From assembly GCA_964035545.1 (NCBI GenBank), contig OZ037766.1:11522722-11586721 (forward strand): a stretch of DNA of 64,000 bases, in the 5' to 3' direction. Position 1 is the first letter of the stretch. Each line of letters opens with the position of its first letter. Of this stretch, positions 37,395-62,997 are shown piece after piece. This DNA is from Bugula neritina (Eukaryota; Animalia; Bryozoa). The position numbers and the translations under genes were made by a program. Below the pieces are notes generated by a model. That model saw only the letters and a program-made list of their open reading frames with translations. It was not told where the DNA came from and did no database searches.

Positions 37395-40300
37395 GGTTCT
37401 TCTAGGTCTCGTGAAAATGTCTTTTGGCAGAATTTGATAATCCAATTACGAATTGATTAAAGAGCAAGAAATGCGCTGTCAGTCAACTGCTGTATAGCTC
37501 CTTTGGCTGCTACAATAACATCCTCCGATGTAACCCAAGTTAGTATTAATGTATGATGCATGTAGCAATGTACACCAATTGTATCAACTGCATTAATATG
37601 AGACAGTAACTATCCATCCTATTACAGCTAGAGGATAGTTATACAGGCATAGTTTATGTTAACTGCCCTACCTTTTTATTACAACCACTTGTTATCAGAC
37701 ACTTTATACTAACTTACTGAAGCATATACAATAGAAAATGAGTCGAAGAATGTGTATCACCCATATACTTGCATAATGAGACGGTTTCTTCTAGAAAAAG
37801 TATGGCCCGCTGAGTTTCTATAAATGTTTATCATAATCAGAACAATTAAGCTTACATTAAACTATGCCTCATCTAAATCAAAGGACCAGTGAGCTGAATA
37901 GGCAAGTCATTTCTAAAGAAATGTGTTAGCTGAGTAAACATTTATGATAAATGTTGAACTAATAGAACAAATATTACGTATAAAAAAGAAACATACCTTA
38001 CTTTAAATTTAAGGCAAGCTGGTGAAAATAATTAACTGCCAGTTATCGTTACTTACTAAACATAACTTTTTGTGAGATATGGTCTGAGACAAAATACAAA
38101 ATATATTAACTGCCACAAAGTTATATTTACACAGTTGTTGTTATAGTTTACATATTACACATTATAATATACTGGTACAAATGTTTATACTGATAATAAC
38201 ATCTCAACAACAATACCTGTAGCTTAAAGGACAACATGACACAAGGTAATTGTTTCAAGATTTGGTTGAAGAAGTAAAGATTTTACATTTGAAAGAGAAT
38301 ACAATAATATGTTCAAATTATTAAGCAAATATAAAACCAAGTACAGGAATGGGAATTTTAGGAAACTTCTAGAATGGAAAAGTAATTTGTTGAAAGCTTT
38401 CAGCCTTCTGTTGAAGTACCATGTCAACGTTATGCTGTTCTGTGGAGAGCTTTGGGTAAAACATAAAAATGTGATATTGTTATATTTCAATAGCTGATAT
38501 ATCTCAACACTTTCAAGACATGTTTCCGAAATCACCATTTAGGTTTTTTAAAACAATATACATTCCAATCCATTCTTTCAATTAGATAAAGAGATCTAGC
38601 TTGGAATTCTAAAATTTGAGAGTGGGTGTAGACAGACGAAGTATGTGAGGAATTACAGTTTCCCAACATCATTTATGGTTCTAGTGGAACTTTCTAGCAT
38701 GAGATGTTTCCTTGATATTGTCTGGTGATGAAATAAGGCAATCACATTCCAAACTCAGATGCGAAAAAATATCATGAACCGGCAAGCTAAGACAAAATGA
38801 AAATGTACATTTCTACACCTAACAGAGTCAATGATACAAATGTCTTATATTTATAGAATCAGTGCAAAATAAATAGAAAGAAATACAATTTTAGTTGAAC
38901 ACCTACCTTACGCTTAAAGTTGACTACAGCTACTACTAAGACTAGTTTTAGGCACTTAACAAAATCAGTCACAGTATGACTATAAGTATAACTATAAGTA
39001 TATACTTACCTATACTTATAGTTATAGTCTGACAAAATTTCAAGTTTAATGCTTCTTCGTTAAAAGATTATCTAGTAACATAAGCATTCTTTGCATTTGC
39101 TAAGCCTAATGCTAATAGTAAATACACTACTAACACAGTTACTAAAAGTAAAAGTAAGTTAGTTTGAATAAATATAATGATAATGTTTCATAGATATAAA
39201 ATCATAGATAAAACATTTTAACACAATATGAATATACTGGAATCTAGAAATTGATTCATTAGAATTTAGATTATACTTGTTTTAGTTTAAAGCTACTGCA
39301 AGTTTGTAAATATACCAGTTATTTATTTAATCAATAAATATAATGTTTTTATTCAAGTCTCATTTTAATGTCATAATTTGCAAAAACAAACAAACTGAAA
39401 TTATTAAAAAATCAAATAAATGACAATGTGAATGTGTTTACTTACCTTAAAATTATGAAGTGGAATCTCAATGAGAAGTAGTAGCAGTCTGAGTCACTTC
39501 TATAAGTATAAGCCTAAGGACGTGCGAACTACTAGATCTAGTAATCCAAAGGTGCATAAATAAATGAGAACACAGTAGCAACAACAAAACCCTACTATAG
39601 CGGTCAGAGAATATTATTCTTTTGACACTGTGTTAGTTAGCCGACAGTAAGACAAATAACATCATTATATTCTGTTTACACAACAATAAAACAATATTGA
39701 TCCAAATAGTAAGCACACACACCCTTGCGCTTTGCCTTTAGTCATGTAAGCTACAGCCAATGACTGAGATTACGCAAACCACTGTAGCAGCTGCATCGAG
39801 CGAGACGTACATGTGAAGATAACTACATTTAAAAACAACTTCGTTGTATTTTATAGTCAATAATTTATTTGTATAGACTATAGACTATAGACGTTATGTG
39901 CAACGCGATTTCTCTCTCTTTATAAAAGTTGTTCAAATTCTAAGCAACAGTAAGAACAATTTAAAGAAATGTTGCAAATATCAAAAACTTATCTTAAATT
40001 ATATTCATTAAACTTATTGGTAATACTGTGAATAAATATAGTATTTTATCAACATTGCTTACAAATATTCCTCCATGCTCAAAAGTAAAGTTCTTATATC
40101 ATAAGTTTATATGACTTTGTTTGTGAAAATGTAGCATTGTAAAGAACACTCCATATATATACAAGTTATTGGTATATTATAATTTAATATGTGTAAGCCT
40201 ATTATAAAAATTTAGGCATACTGCATATATACTGATATAATAATTATGGTGATCAGTACCAACTTATGTGTATATTTACAATTTTATGAACATTCCTAAT

Positions 40301-42489
40301 TATTTACATGATTAAAAAGTTTATTTCTAAATTAAAATATCATATTCAAGTATAAGATGTCTATCAGAATATTTTTCAATTTGAAAATTATTTTAATGGT
40401 AATTAAGTCAATCGTTGAAAGAGCAATGGAAAAATGACAAGCTTGCAAGGAGTTGTCACACTATAAGCTGACAACAGGTGAGTAAGAATTTCAAAAAGTA
40501 AGAAGCTTTTTGATTTCTCTTACATACAACAATCAAATTAATGGTACACAAATATATATAATTACATTATTTAAGTATAAACAAACTAGCTATCTTCTTA
40601 AGAATATACCTGCTCACTGGTAATTATTTAAACTAGGGTTTATGAAGAGACATGTAGTTATAAAAAATATCAATCAGTCATTCTTTGTTTCATTGACCAT
40701 TGATTATCATTTCTGCTAAGTTCATTTCTAAAGTAATCTATTGTTGATATTAAACCACCAGTCAACTCAACTTTTAGGAACCAGTCTAATATTCGTCTAG
40801 CCCTTTCAATATCTGGCTTTCTTTTCCTTGGGTCATCTTCCATTGCTTTCACATGAACAATTTTACTTGAGCTACCTAAAACCAATAATTGATCCAAAAT
40901 ATATTACTTGTTTTCTCATAGCAATACTGAGAATAATAGAAATTATTGTCAATGTGTGAAAGTGCAAAACATTTAATTTATAAAAATGGAGTTGTTTGCT
41001 CCTTACTATTTCACAATATCTTTCAGATATTGTAGCAAACGCACCTGTAGACTCTTGGCTAGCGTGCACCAAAAGAACATCTTTCATACAAAATAGCATA
41101 TCATTTGCCTGAAAACTTTAGTAGAACTCATTGAGTAGATCATAATAAGTAGAATTTATTGAGTATATTTTATTAATTAATTGAATTTATTAATTTGTTA
41201 ATCTTACTAAAAATAGCAAAATTTAAATCATCATCCATAGTTAACTGTCAAACTGCAGGCTGCATAAGTTTATAAACAATATATAAAATCAGTCTATAAA
41301 TCTCATCTTTTAGAGCAATTGTTGAAGATATTAAGCAAATTACAACATTCAATAAAGCACCTCAATGTATATAGACTAAGGTGGCTGATTTTAGTCTTTC
41401 CACATGCACAATGCATGAAAACAGAGTGTTGAGTTCAAGATGTAGCTAGCTACTCAGGCTACACTGGTTAAATCCTTGCATAGAAATTAGTGCAAAACTA
41501 GAAAAAAACATTTCTGTAAATTTTATACCCTAACATCTAAACATATTATTATAGAGGCTTGCAAGCAGCTATAATAGCTACAAGTCAACACGGCATGAAA
41601 AAGTTGAACACATATTTTAAGGTTGAATCAACCCGTCCGCCAGGTCTGACAAACATATTCTAATAATGAGTAGATTTGCAATACAAGGGAACCCTGCTTA
41701 ATTTACATAACATTATGTATACATCAGATATGTGTGGCGTCATCTCTAATATATATGGATTTTTTATTCACTGATTTACAGTTGAGAAAAAAATTAATTT
41801 TTTCTAACATGGGGTGACCTACTGTAACAGATTTATTCTGTGGACACTGTAGTATAAAATTACTTTTGACTCGGCCATCATTCATGTAAATTTGAAGTCC
41901 GAATGTGTTGTACATGCGAGCAACTCTCACAATTGCAGAGCTTCCTGTGAATACATATTATTAACACATCGTAACATGTTATCTATTAAACCTCTACGAC
42001 TGCTACTACGACTACTATTCTGTTAATGTTACCACCACCATTATTCCTACTACTAATGCTATTACTGCTGCTGCCAATACCACTTTTAAAGTAAGCTAAA
42101 TACTGTGAATGTTGCTAGAAGCAGCACTGAGTTTCGGGTGACTGAGTACAGTATTTGTCCGAACTGCAAACCCCCAACTTTAAATTCATGACCCCTTAAC
42201 CAATGCACTCAACGTGACCACCAACTCGATGTAACAGGTAGTTTAAGGTCACATTTTCTAGTTTCAGACTTTGCTTTCTGTTACATATAAACGGTTCCCA
42301 GCTATAGATTGAACAGTTTTTGCACCATCCTAGCAAATTATACATCAAATAAAAGCTCTCAATCTCTTTAATATACTTTTTTATTTCTTTAAATTCTGGT
42401 TATATATATTCTTTACAATTTGGTCAAAACATACACTAATTTGTAAGTTTCATTGCAATAGACCATGTAAAACTCATCAAATTATCAGG

Positions 42490-42880: not shown

Positions 42881-43114
42881 GTTGATTGGCTGAACTTTAA
42901 ATGATCTAATTCATGTTTGTATGTAAAATTTTAGGCTACATATCAATTTTACTGATGAATGCATTGGCCATAGAGAGCTAGTATTAAACCATACTAATTT
43001 GACCAACACTTATCATACCTGAGCGTAGTGAAGAGGGACTGAATTGCTGACGGTGGTGACAAAAAACACTTGAATTAACTAACCAGTGTGCTAACCAAAC
43101 GATAGCCAATAAAG

Positions 43115-43603
43115 ATGAAAACTATAGAAGACGAATGTACTGTGAGAAAAGCTGTTAGAGCTGATTGTAAGGATATATGGGAAATGTTTTTACAATTGCA
43201 AGCAATGTCAAATGTAACACCAGAGCAAGTCAAGTTTTCTAAGGAGAGACTGCAGAGAGATGGTTTTGACTGCAGCTCTCCATTGTTTCACTGCATTGTT
43301 GCCGAACTCAAAGGAGTTGCTATTGGTTACGCTCTGTATTCATACCAATACTCTGCATATGAAGGTGGTCTAGAGATGCGTGTATCCAACCTTTTCGTTC
43401 AAGAGGTATACAGATGTAAAGGAGTTGGCAAATTACTTTTTGAAGCACTTATTGAAGAAGCTAAACAGCAGAAAACCATTGGAATAGAATGGATGGTACT
43501 CAACTGGAATCATACTGCTATCAAGTTCTATGAAAATTTTGGAGCTAAGGATTTGACAATAACTGAAAAAGTACATGCTTTTCATATTTCTTTATCTGAG
43601 TAA
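43115..43603 (+). CDS. GNAT acetyltransferase of the spermidine/spermine (diamine)/thialysine N-acetyltransferase family, SAT1/SAT2-like, intronless CDS
   Basis: Family motifs VRKAVRADC, LQRDGF...PLFHCIVAE, IGYALY, the acetyl-CoA loop YRCKGVG, and WMVLNWNHTAIKFY..FGAKDLT. Good start context (AAGATGA) and AATAAA near 43692. Confidence 0.88.
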   Translation: MKTIEDECTVRKAVRADCKDIWEMFLQLQAMSNVTPEQVKFSKERLQRDGFDCSSPLFHCIVAELKGVAIGYALYSYQYSAYEGGLEMRVSNLFVQEVYRCKGVGKLLFEALIEEAKQQKTIGIEWMVLNWNHTAIKFYENFGAKDLTITEKVHAFHISLSE

Positions 43604-45941
43604 AGATCTTCCTGTTGAACAACATATGTGTTCACAAAAATATATGGTATTTTGTACAATTGTGTTTGGGATTTTCAAATTGTATGAAGAAAATAAAGTT
43701 GCCTTCTCAATGGCTATAAGTCGGTCATTAGAGTTTGTTTTTTTTTTGCAATTAGCTACAAGGTCTATAAATGTTTTTATAGTATTGAACTATAAGACCA
43801 GGTTTTACTGATGCTAAACACGATAGATAATTTGATGATCTTAAAACTTGAATGCTATAAAAAAATCATTTGCAGAGCAAAAAGCTGCTTGCTAGTTTAA
43901 AGATTATTTTTGTCATCACTATGTGTGTTTAGCAATGCAAAAATTGTTTTAAATCATGAGAAAAAAGTTTGTTTTTGCAAAGTGTTCAAACAACTGCAAT
44001 TGTAATATAATGTTATGGTACTTTAAATCACTAAAATCTAAGAACTAGTTTCTTTTAACTTGATATTAGAAAAAAATTCATTGGCTTACTGAAAGGCCGC
44101 ACAAATATTGTGAACTCGTACATTGAATTAGTCAAAAATTAAAATATCAATGGAGAGCACATGTTAACACACCATAAGCTATTAGAGCAATAACAAGCAG
44201 GTGAGAGTATTTGTGACACATCAGGACATGCATTATAAAGTCTTGAAATAGTTCTGGAGATAAAGGACAATGGGACACACATGCTCAGTGCCATCAAACT
44301 TTGAACAAAAATATAGTCTGTAGATTGTTATGGAATTAAATGATGAAAATATAGTATTTTATAAAAATTGTCACATTATTTGCATGATTATAAATACTCT
44401 ACTATGCTCAAAAGTTAAGTTCTTATATCATAAGTTTATATGACTTTGTTTATAAAATTTAGTATTGTGAAAGTATGCACCCCTAGATATAATAATTTAA
44501 TACATGTATCACTTTTAAATAACTTAATCTTAGTTGACATGTTACAGTAAAATAAAGAATAAAATATTATTTTGTGGTCATTATGGAGTGTAGTTATAAA
44601 ATTAAGAAGCTAAAAATAAGAAATTGGAAAATTTGTTGCGTTGAGATTTGCTATTAGGGTTAGCTAACGATGTCAATGGCCTCAAATTTAGTAACTTAAG
44701 CTATAAGTATGATAATAGTACTTTTCAAGTAGACACAGGACATTGGCATTTTTCTATTATATCATCATGTTGCACTAATAACTTAAGAATAAGCCATCGC
44801 CCTACAGACAACAGCTTTAATTTCGTCCTAGCTATGTGCTTATAGTCAATATACACTTACAAACCCCTTTCAATGATATGGCTTGAAAGTTCAAAGCTTT
44901 AACTTTCAAGCCATCCCAGTGATTAGGCTGTGTAGTGCAGCAGCTAAAAGCAGCATGCAATGGAAGTTAGCTATAATTAGAATAAGTTTTATAGTAGCGG
45001 TAAAGTCAAAGGCGACCAGAAATGTCATCTGCAAGCGGTCAGAAATCCCAAATCATTTCAGCACATACTCACGCAAGATTAAGTATAAAGTAAAATTGTT
45101 TAGGTATACAACCTTAAAACAGTATGTAGATGAAAACTAATACATAAATAACAATATTTTAATACCGCATGAGTGAAGTGTGTCAGGGATTCTTTAAACA
45201 AATATAATGCAGCTAATATAAAATAGCTTTGTCAAGGATAAAGCATACTTGGAGTGCAATTCAAACTATGAATTACAAGGTTTTGAACAGCAGTATTGGG
45301 CAGCTTATCATAGTTTCAATTGAACAGAAACATGATGCATCAGTGAAAGTCGTTCAGATGAGTTAATAATGAAAAAGCTAAATTTAAAGGCTATATTATG
45401 CCAGTATGATATGATTTTTATTCAAGTTTTAATTCATTCAACTTGTATTGTATTAACCAAATAAATTTAATAAATAGAGATATCTGCATTTGACATACAT
45501 GCATTTAAAAGCACGAAAGGAAACACTAAATAACTCAGCATATTACCAGCACTAATATATGGGATATCAGTACCAATTTTTGTGTATATTTACAGTTTTA
45601 ATAACATTATCATTACAAATTATGGACATGGTAAAAACATTTATCTTTAAAACAAAATATTCCAGTAGATGTCTATCCGATTAATTTTCAAATTGAAAAC
45701 TAGTTTAATTGTAGTTAAGTTAGTAGTAAACATGGAAGGAGTTGTCCCACTATAAGCTGATCAAAAAGGGGAGTAAAAACCTTCAAAAGTGAGAAGCTTA
45801 TTCTCTTACAGACAACAATCAAATTGGTACACAGAGATATATAATTATATTATTTAAGTATGAAAAACTTCTTTTTTTAAAAATACAACTAATACTTCTT
45901 TAGACTAGGGTTTATGAAGAGACATATAGTTATATAAAATA

Positions 45942-48900
45942 TTAATCAGTCATTCTTTGTTTCATTGACCATTGATTATCATTTCTGCTAAGTTCATTTC
46001 TAAAATAATCTATTGTTGATAATAAACCATCAGTCAACTCAACTTTTGGGAACCAGTCTAATATTCGTCTAGCCCTTTCAATATCTGGCTTTCTTTTCCT
46101 TGGGTCATCTTCCATTGCTTTCACGTGAACAATTTTACTTGAGCTACCTAAAACCGAAAATTATTAGAAATAAATCGGCCTTTTCGTTTTCTCATAGCAA
46201 TACTGAGAATAATAGAAATTATTATGGATGTATATAAATGCAAGGTATCTAAGTTATAAAAGGGAGTTGTTTGCTCCTCACTCAATCACTCTAATTATTA
46301 TCTTTCAGATCTTGCAATACAAGAAAACTATAGACTTGAGTAGAATTTATTGAGTAGAATTTATTGAATAAAATTAATTAATTGAATTTATTGGGTAAAT
46401 AATTATATTCAACATAGTAAACCATCAAATCCATAGTTGGCTGTCAAACTGCAGACTGCATAAGTTTATAAACAATATAAAATCAGTCTATAAATCTCAT
46501 CATTTAGAGCAATTGTTGAAGCTATTAAGCAAATTACAACATTCAATAAAGCGCCTCAACGTATATAGACTAAGGTGGCTGGCTGATTCTAGACTTTCCA
46601 CATGCACAATGCCAGAACACAAAAGGGTGTTGAGTATTAAGAGGTAGCTAGCTACTGAGACTACACTGGTTAAATCCTTGCATTAAAGTAAGAATGAGTG
46701 GGAAACCATTCTCTAACAGAATTTTTTTTCTGTTAATTCAATACCCAAACGTCTAAACATATTACCATAGCAGCTTGCAAGCAGCTATCTAGGAATCAAC
46801 ATGGCATGATAAGGTTGAAGGCATATATTTTAAGAAACAACTAACCACTTAGTTTCTTAATGATGGTTGCGAACTCCTCAATGGAATGTTCCTCGGGATT
46901 TCCCAAGTTAACAGGCAGAGAATAATTGCTATTCATCAGTTGAATCAGCCCTTCGACCAGGTCTGTCACATATTGGAAAGATCTTGTCTGCTGCCCATCT
47001 CCATAAATCTGCCAAAAATATTCTAATAATAAGTAGATTTGCAATACAAGGGAACCCTGCTTAATTTACATAATATGTATACATCAGATGTTTTTGTGTG
47101 GTGACTTCATCTTTATTATATGAACTTTTTATTCATTTACTCACAGATGTGGAGAGGATTAACATATCCTAACATGGGGTGACTTACTGTAACAGATTTA
47201 TTCTGCAGACACTGTAGTATAAAATTACTGACAACTCTGCCATCATTCATGTACATTCGAGGTCCAAATGTGTTGAATATGCGAGCAACTCTCACTTGCA
47301 GAGCTTCCTGTGAACATATCAACACATCGTTACATGTTATCTACTACTGCTGCTGCTGCTGCTACTACTACTGCTACTATAACTATTACTGCTGCTGCCA
47401 CTATTACTTTTAAAATAAGCTAAATGCTGTGAATGTCGATAGAAGCAGCACTGATTTGAGTTGACTGAGTATAATATTTGTATACATATTGTTGCCCGAA
47501 CCCAAACTTTAAACTTGCAAACCCTGAACCAGTGCACTCAGTGACCACCAACTCGGTGCTGCATCAAGCAATTTTCAAGAATTGTATTTCTCGCCATGAT
47601 GAGATGCACAAAAATTATGAGAACCATCAAAGTAGGACTAGCTAGGATTTGAATCCATGACCTAGTGTATGCTAGGCCTGCGTACTAACCGCTTCGTCAT
47701 GGCTACTCCCAATAACTATACTATACTATACACTAGCTAGTGTATGATTACAAGTTAGTATATGATTATACTGTGACCATATACTACCAGTAAATAGTAA
47801 AACTAATTACCACTAGCTCATTGCACAATTAGTTCAAGGATTCCTATTGGTTTTTTAAAGAAGAAAAGAATACTGTAATACTAACTTGCTTTTTGTACGC
47901 ATAGCACATGGACTCTGCTACACGCTTAGCCTCATCATAGCATGCCCGCGGCCCGATAGGATTCACATTCCCCCAATAGTTCTCAGTCTGAGGGTGTTGT
48001 TCAGGGTCTGTCAACCAAACAGCATATTTACAATAGAAGCCATTTTCATTACAAAATCAGCTAGTATGACTCAAATCTTGCTATTCCTAGTTAACTAAAC
48101 ATCCTACAGGGAATATAGTCATTTTAAATCAATAAGTTGTTGCAGGGTAACATTAGAAAAAGTTGTAATGTCTTCTGCATTGAGTAAGTTAGAATATTTT
48201 AGGTAAATAACAGGTAGTTGGAGAATGTTTCAATAATAACTCCACTTTAGGCAAAGAAGCAAAACTATGTTTTACTTGAAAAAACTATGTCTATATTATA
48301 CACAGAAGCTTCTGTTTGAAGTTCAATAAAACAGATTGAGTAGAATCTAGTCACATGTCACTCAAAACTGTCAAAAGGTACTACTAAAGGTTTGGCTATT
48401 TTAAAAGGCGTCTAATATCCGATACTTATTTGTGATTTTCACATTTGGCCTATTCAACCCTCAAAGACGACTATTGATAACTTTAAATGCCCATAGAACA
48501 AGCTAAATCAACTTGAAAACAACCGTTTTAATTACTTCACTGATTGGAGTAAAAAGATGTTTGAACAACTGCCTTAATTTCAACAGGCACATGTAAAATT
48601 TACATAGCATACAATAACTTTTACCTTTAACAAGCTAATTGCATAATGACAATGCATTTTAAATTATCGCTAGATAATTGCCAAATAATTTTCTCACACA
48701 TTCAGTACCCTATAGACAGTAAAAGAAAAAAATATGATAACATGTTTTAAAAGCTGCACGAACCGCCATACACTTCTGAAGTAGAAGCTAATAACATTTT
48801 TGCTTTAACCCTTTTAGCTAGTCCTAGCATGTTGATTGTGCCCAATGTGTTGGTCTTTATAGTTTTAATAGGATTGTACATGTAATTGGGAGGTGATGCT

Positions 48901-51900
48901 GGTGAAGCCAGGTGGTAGATCTCATCGACTACAATATATAAGTAACACACACTTCACATGTATACACAGCAATATATTATCACAAAGTATTCCAATAGAC
49001 AACTCTACTCCACCCCCAGCTTTAACTGTCAACAAGAGTAAAACTCCGTATCATGTTACTGCTACAGCACAGCAAAGTTTACTCAAATAATGCGTGACCA
49101 ACCAACTAGTCATACTCTACTATTTTAAATATGATATTAGCAAATAATAGAATTATATAAAAATATTGCAAAATTTAAAATACACATACATTGGAGTCAG
49201 GGTTAGTGCATTAGAATTGACAACCTACTAGTTAGGGTATTGAACATCTATAGCTATATATTAGAAAAAAGTCACCTTTTTAATGTATATGTAATGATGT
49301 AGTGATTAAAACAAATACTAATACTTCAACACCCCTTGAATACAAGATTTTTTATGAAATAAGTACCAACAAGAAATGTAAATACAATAGTACAATAGAA
49401 TTCAAATTGTAATAGCACAATACCAGAGTGATTGCCTGTTTGCATTTGGGGATTTACTATGACTGGAGGGATAACAACAAACAGAATAAGACCATAAAAT
49501 AGCATAGACTCCACTTAGGTGTAGATATGCAGATTTTTACTTGGCTTGTGTCTCTAATTTTTAGTTTAGATTCTGATTCCTTTACTTTATAAACATACAA
49601 CTTTAAATGCTATAAATTAGACGCACAGTGTATCGACAACACACTATATTATACCAGGTGCAATATTTTGCATCCAACAGACTGTGAAGGGGAAAGAGTA
49701 GACTGACAAATACCTTCTATGAATATAGGATTCACAACGTCGTGATTCATTAGCTCAAAGTTAGGGTGGCCAATCCAGTGAACTATGTTCTGTTTTCTAC
49801 CAGTGAAGAAATTATCAACTACTGTAACCTCATGACCATCCGCCATCAGCGCATCTACCAGATGTGAACCGACAAACCCCGCACCACCAGTAACCTGCGA
49901 ACAGCACATGTTAATAGCAATATCAATGAAGAGCACATGTTAACACACCATAAGCTATTAAAAGAATAACAAGCAGGCGAGAGTACTTGTGACACATCAG
50001 GACACACTTTATCAAGTCTTGAAATAGTTCTTGATATAAAGGACTATGGGACACACTGGCTCAGTGCCATCAAACTTTGAACAAAAATTTATTCTGTAGA
50101 TTGTTATAGAATTGAATGCGTCTTCACAAGAGAAATTTATCAAGAAACACTAATCAAACAACCAATACAGCTATACTTGGTCATTGCTATAAAATGGATT
50201 TCTTCTATCAGAAAATTGATAATCAGAAGTTTCATTGAGATTTAGAAAGTTATAGCTTATACCACCTATTATTTAAGCCAGTTCCTCCGAAACAAAATAG
50301 TTTTTAGGACATGTTGGTACATCATGAGCAGCACCCTTAACCTCAGCATAAACATATGTAATTAGATAACCCTGACTTACAAGGATTCTTTTTCTCTCAC
50401 TGTAATTCCTTTTTTTAACATGCGGATACGATGTGGTGTTTATTCTACAACAAAACAATTGTAGTTGAAAATAATTTATAATTTCAAGATCAAAAGAAAC
50501 TCAAACTTTATTATATATGATTAGTTAACGGCCATACTCCATTTGTCACGACATTTAATCATTTGGACATATAAACTAATGTTAACAAATTTTACAAATT
50601 TAACCAAAATGATGCTATTGCACGTTGCAAATACTAATTCTAAAGCAAAATTCAGACAATTTGATACTGTGAATGTGAGGGTACAAAACTTGTTCTAATG
50701 CAGTATGGCCGACCTCTGAGACTAATTTTGAGCACATGATGCTGCTAATACATACGTTCTAGCAGAAATAATTGTGTACAGCTATATTGTATGCCCAATT
50801 TCATATAAAATAAAGATATTTCAATTTTTATTCTTAGAAATTTAGTTGAAACAGTCTTTATTATCATATGCGAAAACATGAAACTATAAAAATTGTTACA
50901 CTATAACTGCTTGAAACAAATTCTTAGCCTCATATGACAGTCTAATTATTTTAAAACTTGCCTTTGTTGAAGAACGATCGCCCCAATAACTAGTACAAAA
51001 CTTGTTGTATGTAAGTCGTTTATTAAAGCAAATTTACCTTTGGTAATAAAGCTAATCCATCGCAAATATATTATACCGACTAAGCCATATAAAGTTGATA
51101 AAATGTAATAAACTTTTCTTGTCAATTATGTCACTAATATCCCCTGACCTTACCTTTCAGTTAGCTTTTGCATATTTTGATTGAAAAGTAGTACCCATAA
51201 AAATAACCAACAATGGGTTTACATAATAAGGTAGTTACTCACTTTGTTTTTGCAAGCTGAAGTTCAGACTTGAGCATTGCAATAGTGTTTTCTAAACTCT
51301 CTATTTTCATATTTATTCCCTCCACTTGTTGTTGAAGATCATCATCGCCTGTTCTGACTTGACGCTTTACACTAAAATCGCCATAGTAACATGCCAAACA
51401 AAACTGATGGAGTTAGATGAAGAGAGATAGCCCCTTTACTGAGACAACAAAAGTTACTTCAAAATTCTTCAGTTATAAACAATTTCATCGGAATGGTACA
51501 AAAAAATGATCATTAATATATTTTAGTAGACATACTTTTCCAGAATCTCCTCTCCTTTCTTATTTTCTCCAGAGGTCAACACATACACAGCTAAAAGTTA
51601 GTTATGATATGATTGCAGTCATTACACATATGAAATGCACATACATGTATAATTATGTAATAACATAATATATATTTAATTAGTTACCAATACCATAAAA
51701 ATACCCCAATATATATATTTCAAACTATTGAGAGAATGTTGAGTATATTGAAAAAAGCTAAATACTAAACTATTGTTGCCTAATTTTAACTGTTGACATG
51801 ATTAGTGATTTTGAAGGCAAATTTTGGTTTAAATTTTAAAAAATTGTTTAAAAAACCTGACTTTTTAAGCTGAAGCTTCAAGATATTTTCAAGAAAAAAT

Positions 51901-52599: not shown

Positions 52600-53145
52600 A
52601 ATACATATAATATTAATAATATATAATATTATATTTAATAATGAATAATTTTTTTACTGAGAATTATAATGGTTATACTTATACTTATAGTTAATGTTAT
52701 ACTTAGTCTTATAGTTATATTTATAGACTTATAGTGATGATCATAAATCATACTGATTATGATAACATTGATATAAATTATCATTATGATTATGATCATT
52801 TCAATTTCATGTATAATAATAATTATATCAGTGATATAAATATAATTATTATTATTATTATATAACATGAAATGACCATAATGATAATTAATATCATTAT
52901 GATTATTACTCAATACTAATACTAATACTAATAGTAATACTAATACTAATAGTATTACTGTAATACTAATAGCAATACTAATATTAATACTAATAGTAAT
53001 AGTAATAGTAATACTAATACTAATAGTAATAGTAATAGTAATACATATATTTATTAAATTATTGTAATGTAGACTAAACAAATCACTCTTAGACTTATAG
53101 TTATAACTTATATGCTGTAACTGATAACACTATAAGTATAAGCCT
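52600..53145. repeat. AT-rich low-complexity tract (TAA/TAC/TAG)n
   Basis: ACTAAT/AGTAAT runs; these give the spurious I/T/S/L ORF 52635-53081. Confidence 0.85.
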
Positions 53146-53739: not shown

Positions 53740-54140
53740 CGGTTATACTTATACTTAATCTTATACTAATACTTATACTGAGTATAACTTATACTTATAG
53801 TATAACTATTAGTATTACATTAGTATTACTATAAATATAACTAAGTATAACTCTATAAAGTATAAGTATTACTAATAGTTATAGTATCACTATTAGTATT
53901 ACTATTAGTATTAGTATTACTACTAAACTTAGTATTACTTTAATACCAATACTATTACTATTAGTATTACTATTACATTTAGTATGAGTATTATTAGTAT
54001 TAGTCACTATTACTAATTAGTCACTATCACTAATTACTAAAGTTTAGTAGTAATACTAATAGTATTAGTATTACTACTAAACTTAGTATTACTTAAATAC
54101 TAATAGTAGTAGTAATACTATTACTAATACTAATAGTCAC
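53740..54140. repeat. AT-rich low-complexity tract (TAGTAT/TATTAC)n
   Basis: Visible simple repeats. Similar sequence resumes at 61890-62035 beyond the retrotransposon. Confidence 0.85.
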
Positions 54141-54320
54141 ATCTAATAAAATAATTATCAAATCGAAGTTGGCATTCAAGAAATGAAGATCTCACTTTTT
54201 TAGTTTTTAGAATTCCTTCTAGACCGTAGGCTAATGATAATTACTATCAATAAAAAAACTGCTTAAATTTATAATTCATTATTAATACTAATTTTGATAA
54301 CAACTTGAACTTAGTGATAC

Positions 54321-54625
54321 TATTATAGTTTTCTGATTTAGGGTTGATGTGTCACTAAGAGAGTCTATTTAACACTAGAGAAACTTCACCAGTTAAGTCG
54401 AGTAGATATCGTTATATTTAATACAAGAATACATAATAAAAATCCAATGTACAACAGTAATGATACGCACGTCTATTTAGTTTACAGCACTATCCTCAAC
54501 TGAACTAGTAGCGCGAAGCGGCTACTATTACTTATAAAACAGCCTAGCTAATTGGCTAATACATTGTTCCGGGTCAATACGCAACCTTGCGTATTGTGTT
54601 GCTGGTAGCTCCACGAGCCACCACA
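54321..54625 (-). repeat. 3' LTR (TG...TA; terminal CA changed to TA)
   Basis: Identical to 61461-61765 except at position 54322. Confidence 0.95.
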
Positions 54626-54637
54626 CTGCCCCCTCCA
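54626..54637 (-). other. Polypurine tract (GGAGGGGGCAG) abutting the 3' LTR
   Basis: The minus strand reads ...TGGAGGGGGCAG|TGTGG. Confidence 0.8.
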
Positions 54638-54894
54638 GCAGAAAGCCCACTTTCTGATAAAATAAGATTCACATAAAAAAACGTATACTTCGTTGTGGGG
54701 GGTAAGAGAACAGTATAAAAGTGTATACAAAAAAAAACAACAACTGGTAAAAAATATACAGGTATATATAACGTGCACTAAGTAATAAGCAAGAGAAGAT
54801 CCTATCTACATGTAGAGTACGTGCCACCATTATGGTAGGGAATGCCACAGAGAGGTAGGGGAATGAGTAGTAGGGAGTTGTAGGTAGACTCGAG

Positions 54895-55968
54895 TTAACT
54901 GCGGGCCGCACGCTTCATGCGTTTAATAGACTCCTGTAAGTATTTGAGTTCACTGGATGCTGCCTGTACCCGTGGGGCCAGCCTGTACACTTCTTGCTCC
55001 AAGTCATGCGCCCTAGCTTCTACCTCACGTAGGTTACGGGCCCAGGGGGACGAGCGAGAGGAAGTTGGCTGCCTGTGTCTTTTCCGCTCTGAGGATGGAA
55101 GGGGAGGAGGGAGTGTATACGCATTGGTGTCTACTCTCTGTAGTACGACACGAGGAAAGGTATGCGGCATGCGTATAGGACTGTGAGGTGGAGAGTTAGT
55201 AGACTGTGTAGGTTTATCTGCGGCTTTAGAGATGATGGGTCGCGGGGAAGGGAAGCCTTGCTCCAGGCGAGATAGCCGAGCTGAGTCAGTGATGAGTGGT
55301 TTGATGGCGTTGAGAAAGGCAGGATAGGATGATTCGTCTACTTCATAGACATGCCCTTGATAACACTGCATAGTACGTTGGTGCCGCAACAGGTAATCAC
55401 GATTGTAGCTATATTCTCCGCAAGGGCAGAAAGTGGTGATGTAGTGTTGCGGCAAGTGTACTTTTAATCTGCGGTGGGTCGTGGATCGCTGCTGGCAGAG
55501 GTTGCATTCACGATTACCCTCACCTCCTTGATGGGTCCTGATCTCTCTCTCTGTGGCAGGGGTAATCCAGTTGGAGGTTGCTTCCAACTGGGGTGGCAGT
55601 TTCCTGGTGGTAGAAGTTGTTGGGGCCGGCTCTGAGTCCCACGCCATCTCTAGAGAAGGCATGCCCGGAGAGACGGGCGCGAGTGTGTCTACAAAAGTAG
55701 AATTAGTGTTAGATCGCGATGGATCTTTACAACCTAATTCTAGTGACTGTCGACCGTTGCTGGCCTGAGAGTCACTGCTTTTGGAATGCACTCGAGGAAC
55801 TGATGAATCATGTGTGGACTGACCAAGAACAGTGTCTAGCTCCAGGTCTAACAGACCATCGGCCATTACAGTGTCTTCATCGTCATTCACATGAAACGTG
55901 GTTCCCAGTAATTCTGATTCAATCTGCTGAATTAGTTTAGAATCTACTGGCATCGAGCCCGTTTCCAT
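54895..55968 (-). CDS. Retrotransposon ORF3: 357-aa zinc-finger plus coiled-coil protein, not Env
   Basis: C-x2-C-x12-H-x3-H (55506-55444), C-x1-C-x12-H-x5-C (55428-55363), PRVVL (55155-55141), RKRHR, and a C-terminal heptad repeat. No signal peptide or TM segment is visible. Confidence 0.85.
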   Translation of the reverse strand: METGSMPVDSKLIQQIESELLGTTFHVNDDEDTVMADGLLDLELDTVLGQSTHDSSVPRVHSKSSDSQASNGRQSLELGCKDPSRSNTNSTFVDTLAPVSPGMPSLEMAWDSEPAPTTSTTRKLPPQLEATSNWITPATEREIRTHQGGEGNRECNLCQQRSTTHRRLKVHLPQHYITTFCPCGEYSYNRDYLLRHQRTMQCYQGHVYEVDESSYPAFLNAIKPLITDSARLSRLEQGFPSPRPIISKAADKPTQSTNSPPHSPIRMPHTFPRVVLQRVDTNAYTLPPPLPSSERKRHRQPTSSRSSPWARNLREVEARAHDLEQEVYRLAPRVQAASSELKYLQESIKRMKRAARS

Positions 55969-55985
55969 GAATAGGAATACAAGAC

Positions 55986-58900
55986 TTATACTGGCTTACC
56001 TGGGAACTCGGTATTAATGTCCATACTCAACGTTCTTGGTAAGGTTGGAGCTGGTTGTGAGATACGTCTGCCTTTGGCGATGTCAGCATAAGAAAAGGCT
56101 GAGCATCGTTTCTGAGGCACGAGGTCGGAACTATTTGCTTTACGCGCATTAATTCCTCCCACTATTCCGCCCTCGCAAAAGTTGATATTTGCGTGGGGTT
56201 CACAACTCCAACATTTTATCGTACGGTTTTCCCCTAGACTTTCATGTGCGCCGCTTCTAATGCAGTCACATATGAAGTCTTTCAAATACGGTGGGGGCTT
56301 CCTCGTACGCTGTCCCCTCTCTAGGAGGGGTGACACACTTGCCGGTTCGTTAGTAGGGGCCTCTAATGGCGTCTCTACTTCACCGTTAGTGGTCACCTCT
56401 TCTTGTTCTCCGGATGGAGCCCCTCCCTTCGTGGGGGTTTGCACTTCCGGAACCGGCTCGGTTTCTGGAAGTGATGGAATTAGACTTGGCGGTGGCGGAC
56501 ACGCTTCTGTTGACAAAAGCTGCCGCTCCTCTCTCACCAAGTTTTCCTCCCGCGGTATGACCACTTCGTATTCAGGTCCATGCCGCCGTCGCCCGCGCGT
56601 CGTTGTCTGCCTCCTGGGCTCTAACAACGGGGGGGCTTCTCCCACTCCGTCGGGGCTAGCCCAATACGGTTTCAAGCGAGACTCATTCTGGATAGACACC
56701 TGTCCTGAGCGCTCAATCTTGTACGTATGATTGGGCATAGCCTCGACGACCACGTAGGGGCCTACGAACTTAGGCTTCAGCTTATCAGCCTGTCCGCGGC
56801 GCCTACGGTAATTGACCATCCACACCTTATCTCCTCTTTGATAGAGGGGTGGTTCATCGGAATCTTCGTGCCGCACCTTCCACTGCTGTTGACGCAGTAT
56901 CTCGTGTGCGGCCTTCATCCGTTCCACTAGTTCACTGGCATACTCATGGACTGAGTTATCCTGCTCTGGAACGTGATAGGTGAGATGGTCAGGGACACGA
57001 GTCTCTCTCCCGAGCATCAAGAGGTTTGGGGTCTCACCAGTACTGGTGTGTGGGGTGCTACGGTATGCACGCATGACTTGCGGCAACACCGTATCCCATT
57101 CCTCTTGACCTCGTCCAAGGAGGAGACTCCGGAGCGCATCACCTAGCATCCGGTTGTTGCGCTCCACCACCCCGTTACCTTGAGGGTGGTAGGGGGTGGT
57201 CCTACTCTGATTTACTCCCCAGAGGTGGCAAAGGTCGCTCATCAGTTGAGACTGGAATTGAGCGCCTTGATCAGAGTGTATCTGTTCGGGAAGCCCAAAA
57301 TAACAGAATACATGTTGGTCTAGTGCCCTGGCCACTGTTGGGGCTGATGCATCTGGGATAGCCAGAGCATCCGCCCACCTAGTAAAGTGGTCGGTTAGTA
57401 CTAGGATCCAATTATTGCCTCTGGGGGTCAGGGGCATGGGTCCGACCAGGTCTACAGCGACCACTTGCCAGGGCCTACCAGCATATAGCCTCCGCCGTCC
57501 TGCTTCACCAGGGGGGCGGCTATGCTTACTGGCCTGGCAGATCTCACACTGTTTGACTCTGAGCCGGACGTCACGCTCCATCTGCGGCCAATACCACCGG
57601 AGTCGTAATTTGGATATCACTCGCTTGACCCCTGCGTGAGCCTGCTTGTGAGTATCCCAAATCAACTTTAGGCGGATGGCTGTGGGGCAGACTACCCTCT
57701 TCCTTTCCGGGTGTCTGCCGCTGGCAGCTAGAGAGATGGTTAGCAACCCATCCTGCCCGATCCGCAGCGAGTCCCAACGCTGACAGTATAGCCGGAACTC
57801 GGCGCATCCCTGTCGTATGCGTTCCTCGCTGGGTCGTCGCCCTTCCCTTTTGGCCCGGTAGATGTCTGCCACGACTCCCGGCAGCTCTTCTTGGAGCTTC
57901 TTCAGCTCTCGAACATTACCGGCCAGTACAGGGTTGGCGCGGAGGTTTTGTACATCCTCCGGGGACTCATCAACTCTTTGCCTGAGTTGACCTTGATCCC
58001 AGTTAAACGGTGCTCCGTGATGAGCCAGCGTCTCCAACTCGCATCGTGGGGGACCTCCATCCCTCCTCTCGATGTTGAGACACTGTTTACAACCTCCGTC
58101 AGGTCGGCGACTCAACCCATCTGCATTGCTGTGTCTCTTGCCCGGTCGGTGTTCGATCCGGTACGAGAATTCAGCTAGGATTTCGAGCCACCGGGCGACC
58201 TGACTGGAGGGCTCTGCTCTCCTGCACAACCAGATCAGCGAGGCATGATCCGTACGCAGCCGGAACTTCCTGCCATATAGGTATGGTCTGAAGTGCTTCA
58301 CTGACTTGATTACTGCCAGCAGCTCCTTGCGGGTAGTGCAGTAATTTCGTTCAGCGGGAGAGAGAGACTTGCTGTAGTAGGCTACTACTACTTCTCGGCC
58401 GTCCTGCACTTGCGACAGCACAGCGCCAACATTCTGGTCACTGGCGTCTGTGTCTAGGATGTACTCCAGAGTGGGGTCTGGGTAGGCCAAGATGGGCGCC
58501 GTTAGGAGGCAGCCCTTGAGGCGGTCGAACGCTTCTTGTTCGACTGGAGTCCACTGCCACGTCACTCCCTTTGCGGTAAGCCGGTTTAGCGGCTGGGCTA
58601 TGCCCGCAAAGTCTGGTATGTATTGCCTATAATACCCTACCAGCCCCAAGAAAGCCCGGAGTCCGGTCAAGTCTTGGGGGGTGACCCAGTCTTCTACTGC
58701 CCGTACCTTTTCGGGATCCGTTGCCACGCCGTTTCGACCGACAACGTGCCCCAGGTACTTGACCTCCGGCTGCAATAGAGCGCACTTGGAAGGTTTGAGC
58801 TTAAGACCGGCACCTCGGAGTCTCTCGAAAACCTCCTGCAGACGACTGACATGTGTCTCGAAGTCTGGAGAGATTACGATGACATCATCGAGGTAGACCA

Positions 58901-60612
58901 GCAGTGTCTTCCAATGGAGTCCGCTAAGGACTTGTTCCATCAGCCTCTGGAAGGTGGCTGGGGCGGAGGTTAACCCGAAGGGCAGCACCTTCCACTTCCA
59001 CAAACCGTCCCGTGTGATAAACGCCGCTTTCTCCTGGGCGTCGGGACTCAGAGGAACCTGCCAATAGCCGCTTAGCAAGTCTAACGTACTGAAGTACTTG
59101 CTGCCGGCTAGGGCGTCCAATGACTCGTCAATACGAGGTAGAGGGTAGGCGTCCTGTATGGTTACGCTATTGAGTTTGCGGTAGTCCACACAGAACCGCC
59201 AACTGCCGTCTTTCTTCCGGACCAGTACGACTGGCGAGCTCCACGCACTATGGGCGGGCTCTATCAGTCCCCGGTCCAGAAGATCCCGTACTTGTCGGCT
59301 AACCTCCTTCTCTTTCTCCGGCCCCAGCCTGCGCGTGGGCTGCCGGACAGGGACTGTCCCTGCAGTCAGCGGTATTTCGTGTCTGACAATTCCAGTCAGT
59401 CCCACGTCATTCTCCCCGCTGCTGAACACATCACCGTAGTCGCGTAGTAACTTGGCCATAGCTTGGCGTTCTCTGTTACTCGCGCAGCCGCCACTGGCTG
59501 TTTCGTATAACTCCCGGAGATGTGTCGGGACTGCCCCTCGTCCCTGAATAGGGTGTCGAGGGGGTGCCTCCGTCGCGTCACCCAGCGACGGGCCCACGTC
59601 CTCTTCCTGGACGGAATGGAACCGGCCCAGCATTGACCCAGCTGGGAGCTCAATGGGCTCGGTAAAGGGGTTGACGCACTGCACTAAGACCTCCCCTCGC
59701 TCAGTTAGTCGGTTTAGACTACTGGCGAGTTGGATCTTTTCGTGCGCGCTTTCAACGACCCCGAGCCTGGCTATCCGGTTGCTGTTCACTCGGCAGTGGA
59801 TAGTAGCTCTGGAGCGTCCGGGTACGGTGCAGTTCCGAACTACCTGAACACCGCCCACCAGAGGACGCCCAAACTTATCCACACAGGCGAGTTCTCGCCC
59901 GCCCATCAGCACCACCGACTTACTAAAATCTATTCGGCACTGGTGTTGCTTCAAGAAGGGCATGCCGAGGATAGCATCTTCCTCCAGTTGACCTATGATA
60001 AAGGTCTCCTGTACAGCCTGATCTCGGACACGCCCAGGGAGCTCGATAATACCATAAAAGGGGATACATGACCCGTCTGCCAGGGTGCCATGTTCTCCAG
60101 TATACGGTCGTACTCTATCCCTGTCCCGGCGGGGCAGTGCCTCAAAGACTCTACGGCTGAGAAGGTTGGTAGTACAACCGGAGTCGAGCAGGAAAGTGAC
60201 GGCGTTGCCGGCCACCTTTCCGGGTAGGAAATAGCTCTCTCCATGTGGTTGTACTTTCACCCCCCCCCGCATGTGCTGTCCTGGTTTGACAGGACGGCGG
60301 GGGTTCCACCCGTGGTTTACGGGGCTTCCGGCGGCGAGGTTGGTGCCGGCGGGGTTTGGGCCTCTCCACTGGGCCTTCTGGCTCCATTTCGGTGGCGGGC
60401 TCCTCCTCCCGAGGTAACCGGTGAAACCGGTTAGCGAGTGGCAGGGAAAAGGTACTAGGCCGTTGTGCGGGCCTACTAGTCCTGCGTGGTACCTGCCACT
60501 CGGGTAGAATGTTCCGCCGGGTCCGTACGGGCAGACGACGGCGTGTTCCACCATACTCCTTTAGTTGCGGCCCGCGGGGAGGGAGAGTGTCCGCGGGCCG
60601 TGACAGTTTAAC
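55986..60612 (-). CDS. pol: Pol polyprotein (protease, RT, RNase H, integrase), entered by -1 frameshift at 60612-60606, with an apparent extra base in the G9 run at 60268-60260
   Basis: LLDSG (PR); LPFGL and YLDD (RT); DTDAS/KELLA/RTDH/NADGLSR (RH); H-x3-H...CEIC, VDLVGP, SDQG, VVER (INT); GPY motif; no chromodomain. The ORF track start at 60554 is probably in the wrong frame upstream of 60260. Confidence 0.93.
60556..60612 (-). promoter_or_regulatory. -1 programmed ribosomal frameshift signal
   Basis: G_TTA_AAC in the gag phase, a 5-nt spacer, a perfect 10-bp stem (CGGCCCGCGG/CCGCGGGCCG) with a 13-nt loop, and a -1 frame that is open to 60151. Confidence 0.8.
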
Positions 60613-61427
60613 GTCCCCTGGTATTGGGGTCGTCCTTTCTGTCCCTGGTCCTGATCAGCGCTACTCCAGCCTTGCCCCACAGGTGTTGGGGGCATCCGCA
60701 AGGCCTGACCGGGGCCAGCACCGGCCAGAATGGTCACCAATTGTCCCAGCATCTCTACCATACGGTCCACTTCGGCTTCCAGCGGGAGGGCTTCGCAGCC
60801 TGTCGTAGCCCGAGCAGCGCTGACTCCAACTACTGGTGGGTTCCGTTGTGCTCGATGCATTTGGGTAGCCAACAGGTAAGCTTCTCCAGCCTTCAGGGCA
60901 TCCTCTATTCTGGTTATCCCTTTAGCTCGTAGGTGATGGTCTAGGCCCAGGTCGTTTAGGGACTGGACAAAGGCGTCATAGGTGTAACGCTCTTGGTGTT
61001 GTGCTGGCAGATCGCTATATGCAATCTGCGCCAGCTTCTTCACCGTCGCGGCATGTTCTTGTAGCGAGGTCCGCGGGGTGCGGCACAATCTCTCCAGCTT
61101 GGTCCTGGCGTCTATGACGGAGGTGCCAAAACGGGCCCGCAGCGCAGCCAGTATGCCGTCTACGTCCGTTCCCACTCCGTACGGCTTGGCTTGCTCCGTC
61201 ACCGCCCTCCGCAATTTGATAAGGGCCACTCTATGCGGCCATTGAGCGACTTCCATTACCTCTCTAAATTCTTGTATAAATTGTTCGACATCTTCCGACC
61301 CAGTAAAGGTGGGAGCTTTCAAGCAATGTCTATAAGCTTCTTCTCCTTCACGATTCACAGGATTAACAGCATTTCTACGCTCACCTTCTACTGGGGGTGG
61401 TTGCATTCTAGCATTTTCAGTCTCCAT
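60561..61427 (-). CDS. gag: Gag (288 aa) with a degenerate nucleocapsid knuckle
   Basis: First ORF after the PBS. Capsid-like motifs KAPTFTGSEDVEQFI, LRARFG, SLQEHA and AFVQSL. Confidence 0.9.
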   Translation of the reverse strand: METENARMQPPPVEGERRNAVNPVNREGEEAYRHCLKAPTFTGSEDVEQFIQEFREVMEVAQWPHRVALIKLRRAVTEQAKPYGVGTDVDGILAALRARFGTSVIDARTKLERLCRTPRTSLQEHAATVKKLAQIAYSDLPAQHQERYTYDAFVQSLNDLGLDHHLRAKGITRIEDALKAGEAYLLATQMHRAQRNPPVVGVSAARATTGCEALPLEAEVDRMVEMLGQLVTILAGAGPGQALRMPPTPVGQGWSSADQDQGQKGRPQYQGTLNCHGPRTLSLPAGRN

Positions 61428-61441
61428 CTTTGATATACACT

Positions 61442-61459
61442 ATCCCACCGCTGCCACCA
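61442..61459 (-). other. Primer-binding site complementary to the 3' end of tRNA-Leu
   Basis: TGGTGGCAGCGGTGGGAT, 1 nt inside the 5' LTR boundary. It complements ATCCCACCGCTGCCACCA, the 3' end of animal tRNA-Leu (AAG type) as recalled. Confidence 0.85.
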
Positions 61460-61460
61460 C

Positions 61461-61765
61461 TGTTATAGTTTTCTGATTTAGGGTTGATGTGTCACTAAGA
61501 GAGTCTATTTAACACTAGAGAAACTTCACCAGTTAAGTCGAGTAGATATCGTTATATTTAATACAAGAATACATAATAAAAATCCAATGTACAACAGTAA
61601 TGATACGCACGTCTATTTAGTTTACAGCACTATCCTCAACTGAACTAGTAGCGCGAAGCGGCTACTATTACTTATAAAACAGCCTAGCTAATTGGCTAAT
61701 ACATTGTTCCGGGTCAATACGCAACCTTGCGTATTGTGTTGCTGGTAGCTCCACGAGCCACCACA
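61461..61765 (-). repeat. 5' LTR (TG...CA)
   Basis: Starts TGTGG and ends TAACA on the minus strand. Confidence 0.95.
61638..61697 (-). promoter_or_regulatory. LTR core promoter: CCAAT box, TATA-like TTTATAAG, initiator TCAGTT; ATTAAA poly(A) signal further downstream (61562-61557)
   Basis: The motifs occur in canonical order, with about 30 nt between the TATA-like box and the initiator. They are identical in the 3' LTR. Confidence 0.55.
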
Positions 61766-62997
61766 ATACTGATCATCATAATCACAGTAAATATGATAAT
61801 GGCTGGCTCAATTCAAACTTAAATCAATACTCTAAACAATTATGAAAATACTGAATCCTACTATGATCAAGTTTAACCATAGCAGACTGCAAATACTACT
61901 ACTATTAGTATTAATTTTTCAAAATTATTCAAAAAAATACTCTATTGATCACTGATAGTGACATACCTAGTTTTTTCTCAGTCTTTATAACTTTTATACT
62001 TAGTATTAAGAATATTACTAGTATTAGTATTAGTTTCCACTTAAATAGTTACAAGTTTTTCTATACTTTGTAAGGTTGTAACTAGTTAGCAAAATACTCA
62101 ACTGTAAGTGACTGCTAACATTTACTGCAATTTGGATGAGATTACATTTATTATTGAAATATAAAAACGGTGAAACTGCTAATATTGGTTGAGCTCAGGC
62201 TTCTAGTTGTTGAATTAGATTTAAAGGATTGCTCTATCTTGTCTAATAAATGGCCATTTAGGTCAAACACACATAATATTGTGTTAAATAAGCATGCATT
62301 GACAAAAAGCATTTGACCAAAGGTAGAAAAAGTTAGTTGAAGTTGAGGGTGTAGATTGGTAACAGCCAAAACGCCGATTTTGAAATGAGCTGGGAAATGT
62401 GACGTAACAGCGCCAGCATTCCTGCTGGTCACGTGACTATACAAATGAATAACTATAGAAATATGACTGTGAGATGTGATCTTTCAGCTCGTAATTTGTA
62501 TATTTATAGAAGTGCAAATGTGAATTATCTCAATCTATATAGTTTTTTGACATTTTAAATAACATGTATGTGATAACATTAGGCCATATTTTGCTTGTAA
62601 AGCATTGCAAAAACATGCATTCTTTAGGATGAATGCCTGCGATCGATCTAAACTAGGTCAGATTGTGCAATGTTACGGGCACACCAAAGCTGACCTATAT
62701 AGCGCACTGTAACTGCTTGAGCGTTATTGGTTGATGTTGTGCTCAGCAACCTTGAATACTAGCGTTATAGTTAGCACGTGCAGCATAGTTACTGGCGTTC
62801 ACACGTCACGTATTAGGCTATTCTTTTTCATGGCTGAAAATTTTACCTCCCTCAAAATTGGAATTTTGAAAAGCTGTTTTCTAGGCACATATCCCTTTGC
62901 AAAGTCACAATTGTTTGCATACACATTAGATTATAGTTCATAATTATAATGTGATTGTAATAAACTAAGATTGAGCAATCCTTTAAGAGTCTGTCAT

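Follow-up and report, generated by a model that had tools for sequence, protein, structure and literature searches.

A two-zinc-finger, non-envelope third gene in a Ty3/Gypsy retrotransposon of Bugula neritina and its predicted role as a nuclear self-regulator

The third open reading frame (ORF3) of a Ty3/Gypsy retrotransposon from the bryozoan Bugula neritina is a conserved accessory gene that does not encode an envelope protein (Env). The element lies on the reverse strand of a 64,000-nucleotide stretch of contig OZ037766.1 (assembly GCA_964035545.1, positions 11,522,722 to 11,586,721), which as a whole is referred to here as the window. The gene, its place in the element, its protein family, its zinc ligands, the bias of its variation toward synonymous changes and the absence of Env features are all matters of observation. 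What the product does is predicted from its sequence and from structural models: ORF3 may act in the nucleus, on chromatin, as a self-regulator of the element, either as a transactivator or as an anti-silencing factor, a reading that is put forward tentatively.

ORF3 is an intact frame of 357 codons whose ATG lies 17 nucleotides past the TAA of pol, between pol and the 3' long terminal repeat (LTR). A preliminary description of this DNA had reported an intact sense frame at this spacing in the env slot of an element with near-identical LTRs, which is confirmed here, and every motif it named is present: an acidic N-terminus, two zinc fingers, a PxVxL motif, the basic patch RKRHR and a series of heptad a/d residues. 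Its statement that ORF3 has neither a signal peptide nor a transmembrane (TM) segment is borne out by hydropathy. The maximum over 19 residues is 0.58, so the protein has no TM segment or hydrophobic signal stretch, and a value of 1.6 is reached by only 2 of the 122 family sequences of at least 200 residues. The preliminary description had allowed that a structure search might reveal an Env fold; searches of PDB and BFVD revealed none (no match of any kind at E<=1e-3), and the best matches were zinc fingers. It is highly improbable, and already largely refuted, that ORF3 encodes an Env-like protein or stems from the recent, neutral capture of a zinc-finger exon of the host. The env-slot position and the resemblance of finger 1 to host C2H2 fingers speak for such an origin, but ORF3 has no hydrophobic segment, shows a synonymous bias and belongs to a family with invariant ligands that is far too deep for a recent capture. 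An explanation from the opposite strand or an alternative frame was rejected, as the overlapping ORFs in ORF3 are shorter than 100 codons and conservation sits on the Cys and His ligands.

ORF3 belongs to a large, unannotated protein family, without a Pfam model, that is built around two zinc fingers. A word-based search yielded 45 homologues among 1,918 candidates, at 35-72% identity and all lacking both a name and a Pfam domain, and an exhaustive search of 50%-identity clusters yielded 212 relatives at E<=1e-3, of which 69 reach 1e-10 and 20 reach 1e-30; with 45 and 212 homologues, the conservation of ORF3 is beyond chance. With 150 of the 212 relatives listed, 195 sequences including the query were pooled, of which 142 have a near-complete core and separate into 55 groups at <45% identity. 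The ligands of finger 1 follow the spacing C155-x2-C158-x12-H171-x3-H175 and those of finger 2 the spacing C181-x-C183-x12-H196-x5-C202. Among 77 aligned members these positions are kept in 75 (C155), 77 (C158), 77 (H171), 75 (H175), 76 (C181), 77 (C183) and 75 (H196), and the fourth ligand of finger 2 varies, with C202 found in 47. Other conserved positions of the core in this alignment are W134 (68), V210 (71) and D211 (72), as well as basic residues in the helix of finger 1 (R/K166 in 70, R167 in 58 and R/K169 in 59). Many database relatives are truncated, as expected from decayed repeats. The two-finger domain is present as a tandem pair in P0174 and P0199, which could be host-domesticated copies, as could some low-complexity relatives (P0234, P0237 and P0245).

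The full-length model predicts a disordered N-terminus and a compact two-finger domain, followed after a disordered linker by a long C-terminal helix (residues 308-356). Residues 120-245, the core, are predicted to fold into a single compact domain, with a predicted local distance difference test score (pLDDT) of 96.2 and a predicted template modeling score of 0.87, the model having been built with the family alignment. The two fingers of the preliminary description are thus present, though as predicted parts of a larger compact domain rather than as beads on a string. Finger 1 is also below threshold in Pfam, scoring 10.9 bits against zf-C2H2 (PF00096) with a cut-off of 25.2, and PF00096 is matched at E<=0.01 in 6 of the 77 members. 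The alignment of the 77 members and the structural alignment give finger 1 the classical C2H2 ligand pattern and fold. The best structural matches of the core are mostly DNA-binding tandem C2H2 pairs (Kaiso, ZNF524 and SALL4; Z 3.4, root-mean-square deviation 2.7-3.9 A over 51-57 residues). Fold searches gave no structural match to the whole domain, which is no proof of a new fold. Among PDB sequences, a profile search matched finger 1 only (HIC2 fingers, E 1.4e-6), and the ESM Atlas returned only unnamed clusters and C2H2 look-alikes.

Sister copies of the element keep ORF3 in frame, although the preliminary description had considered that it might prove absent or broken in them. Among the 422 contigs of run X1 on ORF3, no small indel reaches 3% and one contig skips 234 nucleotides; the element family is young and multi-copy in this run. 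ORF3 has 102 variant sites, and the 40 listed were classified as 23 synonymous versus 17 non-synonymous. Variants at 3-90% in X1 are 17 synonymous versus 2 non-synonymous, compared with a neutral synonymous share of 0.24-0.31 (40 of the 102 sites), which indicates purifying selection within the family. Coverage of ORF3 in run X5 is patchy, with diverged contigs, and was not taken as absence.

The regions flanking the core also recur among relatives. Residues 1-50 of ORF3 include 12 Asp or Glu residues versus a single Lys or Arg, and 21 of 27 hand-picked relatives are likewise net acidic upstream of the core. The pattern [PLC]xVx[LIV] lies within 70 residues past the core in 38 of the 44 near relatives (shuffle mean 6.2), 7 of the 14 at mid distance (1.4) and 12 of the 48 far ones (4.9); the observed counts were reached in 0, 0 and 1 of 1,000 shuffles, respectively. 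In ORF3 the motif is PRVVL, which has the core pattern of an HP1 box and a pLDDT of <50 in the predicted model; HP1 access codes sit in disordered regions, as the PRVVL linker does, according to the available text of PMC12526061. Two Arg residues lie within positions -4 to +4 of PRVVL in the present copy, versus the 3-6 basic residues of the HP1-box description in that same text. Coil-like heptads at the C-terminus were found in 23 of 36 distant representatives versus 5 of 327 control windows, as judged by our own heptad score. The a/d residues in ORF3 are L313, V316, A320, L323, V327, L330, V334, A337, L341, L344, I348 and M351, and the coil includes a proline, P332. Resemblance to bZIP proteins was limited to C/EBP-beta at E 0.07, with a Ser/Pro linker between the basic patch and the coil, and none of the Pfam bZIP families matched ORF3 at E<=1. 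A homodimer prediction for residues 296-357 scored 0.12, which is no answer and was counted neither for nor against dimerization.

Evidence that the family travels with Gypsy elements comes from pol-like sequence ahead of the domain in 3 of 194 relatives, with no match in three control stretches. P0305 matches the protease region (E 6e-41) and P0208 the pol tail (E 1e-6), and the match in P0288 has E 0.003. These relatives are only 29-37% identical to ORF3, and the tie to Gypsy pol is therefore old. Weak support comes from the finding that 2 of 52 JGI integrase matches (>=72% identity) are on a source sequence exactly the size of an ORF3-relative source (null P ~0.035), the 52 rows having been picked from the 120 listed and set against 47 ORF3-relative sources, with a third, cross-source match left out. 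Most of the family is presumably element-borne. No related ORF3 loci were confirmed in metagenome contigs, viral contigs or prokaryote genomes. In P0305 (1,145 residues) the Gypsy protease region is joined directly to the ORF3 domain and no reverse transcriptase or integrase domain was found; it is possibly a deleted, non-autonomous element. The N-terminal extensions of P0228, P0178 and P0236 look by eye like the end of a pol tail running into the start of ORF3, which BLAST did not confirm.

Such joins bear on the quite unlikely alternative that ORF3 replaces the chromodomain of chromoviruses and tethers the pre-integration complex to HP1-marked or sequence-specific chromatin. A Pfam scan of the element pol found no chromodomain in its integrase, the PxVxL-like motif would fit, the domain stands in frame behind pol-tail-like sequence in P0208 and P0288, and P0275 carries ahead of the domain a motif resembling an integrase tail. 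ORF3 is, however, a separate frame in the present element, the in-frame joins may stem from decayed copies, and the surroundings of the present copy are AT-rich and intron-like or intergenic, with host genes nearby. Moreover, no integrase-core fusion was found among the 30 longer relatives scanned; a search of long proteins (840-2,395 residues) likewise gave nothing, but it was insensitive and missed P0305 as well, so it says little on fusions.

If ORF3 is instead a nuclear self-regulator, its translation would start either on a subgenomic message or by re-initiation downstream of pol, and the basic patch would import it into the nucleus. There the Arg/Lys-rich helix of finger 1 would bind nucleic acid, most likely LTR or internal DNA, and the heptad helix would render the protein oligomeric. 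The acidic N-terminus might recruit co-activators, and the PxVxL motif might occupy HP1 chromoshadow dimers. The net effect would be transactivation or relief of silencing that keeps copies transcribed, the sign of the effect being the least certain step. The dimeric trans-acting factor proposed in the preliminary description is partly supported: the accessory gene is real and under selection, does not encode Env and is built like a nuclear regulator, and its dimerization, nuclear location, expression and exact regulatory job are putative.

Several observations weigh against the self-regulator. The structural matches of the core are weak (Z 3.4 is level with unrelated rows) and span under half of it, and finger 1 mostly has a hydrophobic residue at position +6 (V in 34, L in 12 and I in 9 of the 77 members), so its helix may be partly buried, unlike those of base-reading fingers. 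The region upstream of the core is net basic in 6 of the 27 hand-picked relatives. The [PLC]xVx[LIV] pattern was picked after the query had been inspected and the relatives are not independent; a stricter pattern occurs in 4 of 36, versus a shuffle maximum of 5, and a PxVxL-type pentamer is present in over 50% of a proteome (PMC12526061, available text). The synonymous bias rests on 40 of the 102 variant sites. Nine sites that differ almost wholly between X1 and the present copy divide into 1 synonymous versus 8 non-synonymous, so there is no purifying signal on the branch of the present copy. None of the refuting outcomes named in the preliminary description was seen; the one of a ratio of non-synonymous to synonymous change near 1 is at odds with the mostly synonymous variants of sister copies (17:2 at 3-90%). 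Four contigs of the RNA run X2 cover 13 of 30 ORF3 bins, but these are possibly DNA and are not evidence of transcription. Finally, the placement of most family members in Gypsy elements is presumptive.

The same build could also serve to repress. By recruiting HP1 to copies of the element, in the manner of KAP1 with its HP1 box, ORF3 would then hold down their activity, a reading that we consider very unlikely. PxVxL motifs usually recruit HP1 for silencing (PMC12126490, available text), and DNA-binding fingers together with an HP1 box make up the layout of a repressor. The acidic and hydrophobic N-terminus, however, looks more like that of an activator, and the family is young and multi-copy in X1.

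Alternatively, ORF3 could be a Rev- or CERV-like factor that binds unspliced genomic RNA through its basic finger domain, oligomerizes through the coil and licenses export or translation, which is unlikely. Fingers of the C2H2 type bind RNA too, and a splice-donor-like CAG/GTAAG lies just ahead of the pol stop. The one tested env-slot gene that we found for an animal Gypsy element, CERV of Cer1 in Caenorhabditis elegans, is nuclear; it combines a leucine zipper with a basic nuclear localization signal (NLS) and a Cys-rich region, and export of genomic RNA depends on it, as given in the available text of PMC10309623. The acidic N-terminus and the PxVxL-like motif point to chromatin instead, the best structural matches are mostly DNA-bound fingers, and the ORF3 model has no CERV-like domain with a G-protein fold. 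CERV, compared here by its description only, likewise fills the env slot of an animal Ty3/Gypsy element without encoding Env, but it is spliced with gag exons, has H, M and G domains that include the G-protein-like fold and has no homologues outside nematodes (PMC10309623, same portion), whereas the core of ORF3 holds tandem zinc fingers, its N-terminus is acidic and it carries a PxVxL-like motif.

ORF3 has partial parallels in other systems, which are compared here as the available portions of the cited papers describe them. Bdelloid rotifer LTR elements carry family-specific sense ORF3s downstream of pol that are not Env; these encode GDSL esterases, DEDDy exonucleases, TM proteins or coiled-coil proteins, and the word 'zinc' is absent from that text (PMC5408684). 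The preliminary description went too far in implying that an animal Gypsy ORF3 other than Env is uncommon in its own right, since the bdelloid GDSL and DEDDy ORF3s (PMC5408684) and CERV (PMC10309623) are known. The additional ORFs of plant Retand elements (TRP28; the Grande accessory gene) differ in being antisense, confined to plants and marked by a PF04195 domain (PMC11963269). Errantivirus Env occupies the same slot in metazoan Ty3/Gypsy elements (PMC13524379), but ORF3 lacks both a signal and a TM segment and gave no match to fusion proteins. ORF3 shares tandem zinc fingers with host factors of the C2H2 type (Kaiso, ZBTB and SALL4) and a PxVxL motif in a disordered linker with KAP1 (its HP1 box) (PMC12126490, PMC12526061). 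It differs from these in the C-x-C and variable fourth ligand of finger 2, in lacking a TGEKP-type linker and in the predicted extra strands and helices that wrap its fingers into a single domain. The term 'zinc finger' is absent from the available main text of a metazoan errantivirus survey (PMC13524379) and of two annelid LTR surveys (PMC8220671, PMC8556966). Among the papers listed by full-text searches, none has a title or abstract opening that describes, for an animal Gypsy element, a sense ORF3 combining a coil with tandem zinc fingers; the body searched leaves out most subscription papers, supplements, Repbase and GyDB. Prior annotation of the family, for example in Repbase or GyDB, is possible. 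ORF3 is of a known kind, a non-Env ORF3, but we did not find its domain family or its regulator-like layout described. A bolder and rather unlikely extension is that animal Gypsy elements include a deep, undescribed lineage which encodes a DNA-binding, HP1-engaging, counter-silencing factor of its own with a new two-finger domain, some members having been domesticated by hosts; such a factor would be the response of a retrotransposon to silencing by heterochromatin.

The pol of the element has the order protease–reverse transcriptase–RNase H–integrase, and the paired LTRs, primer-binding site, polypurine tract and 4-bp target duplication also agree with assignment to Ty3/Gypsy (Table 1). The two LTRs differ at one of 305 bp, the penultimate base, and this near-identity, the 4-bp duplication and the primer-binding site and polypurine tract still in place mark the insertion as young. 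The primer-binding site is presumably of the tRNA-Leu type.

Table 1. Features of the element and of ORF3, in window coordinates
Feature	Position	Strand	Remarks
Target-site duplication, 5' side	61766..61769	-	GTAT
5' LTR	61461..61765	-	305 bp, TG...CA
Primer-binding site	61442..61459	-	begins TGG
gag-like ORF	60561..61427	-	288 residues, no significant Pfam match
-1 frameshift-like signal	60566..60612	-	slippery-type heptamer, 6-nucleotide spacer, 10-bp GC stem; directly 5' of gag stop; fold z -2.1
Arg-rich ORF	60151..60654	-	167 residues, another frame; overlaps gag end and pol start
pol ORF	55986..60560	-	protease, reverse transcriptase, RNase H, integrase (H2C2, rve, SH3-like), long tail; Pfam
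ORF3	54895..55968	-	357 residues, non-Env accessory gene
ORF3 residues 1-50	55819..55968	-	acidic/hydrophobic, predicted mostly disordered
ORF3 residues 120-245	55234..55611	-	conserved compact two-zinc-finger domain (predicted fold); finger 1 55444-55506, finger 2 55363-55428
ORF3 residues 272-276	55141..55155	-	PxVxL motif PRVVL, predicted disordered linker
ORF3 residues 295-299	55072..55086	-	basic patch RKRHR, candidate NLS
ORF3 residues 308-356	54901..55047	-	C-terminal heptad helix (predicted)
Polypurine tract	54626..54636	-	
3' LTR	54321..54625	-	305 bp, ends TA not CA
Target-site duplication, 3' side	54317..54320	-	GTAT

The pol tail extends about 240 residues beyond the SH3-like domain of the integrase (window 55986-56250, reverse strand). 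The gag and long pol ORFs form one frame with a single TAA between them (60561-60563), and the -1 frameshift-like signal before the gag stop leads into the Arg-rich ORF, which closes at 60151 and has no protease motif. Synthesis of Gag-Pol by the present copy would therefore need read-through or a second recoding event, or else the copy or the assembly is broken between about 60560 and 60230, an interval that includes a run of 10 G residues. Gag-Pol of the present copy may thus be broken; ORF3 would be unaffected by the odd gag-pol junction. Rfam gave no match in window 54000-62000.

Host genes in the window are intron-split and eukaryotic, and include an OSR1_C exon of the WNK/OSR1 kinase type (1425-8777, forward strand) and an exon of an NAD-dependent epimerase (49649-49939, reverse strand). 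A degenerate tandem duplication at 40056-42133 and 44385-47457 (period ~5.2-5.4 kb, blocks 83-96% identical) surrounds an intronless-looking GNAT acetyltransferase ORF at 43106-43603. Inverted arms of an AT-rich minisatellite of the TAATAG/TATTAG type (52911-53044 and 53858-54137) adjoin the insertion site and match very many contigs in runs X1 and X5.

How LTR retrotransposons of animals stay transcribed despite silencing by HP1 and H3K9me3 is largely open, and CERV is the only tested regulatory accessory gene of an animal Gypsy element that we found. With more than 200 sequence clusters, the ORF3 family brings in an unannotated zinc-finger domain and provides a small, conserved and modular candidate. 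Its parts can be point-mutated (the zinc ligands, V274 and the coil) and the 305-bp LTR is a natural candidate target, which makes the question of escape from silencing directly testable.
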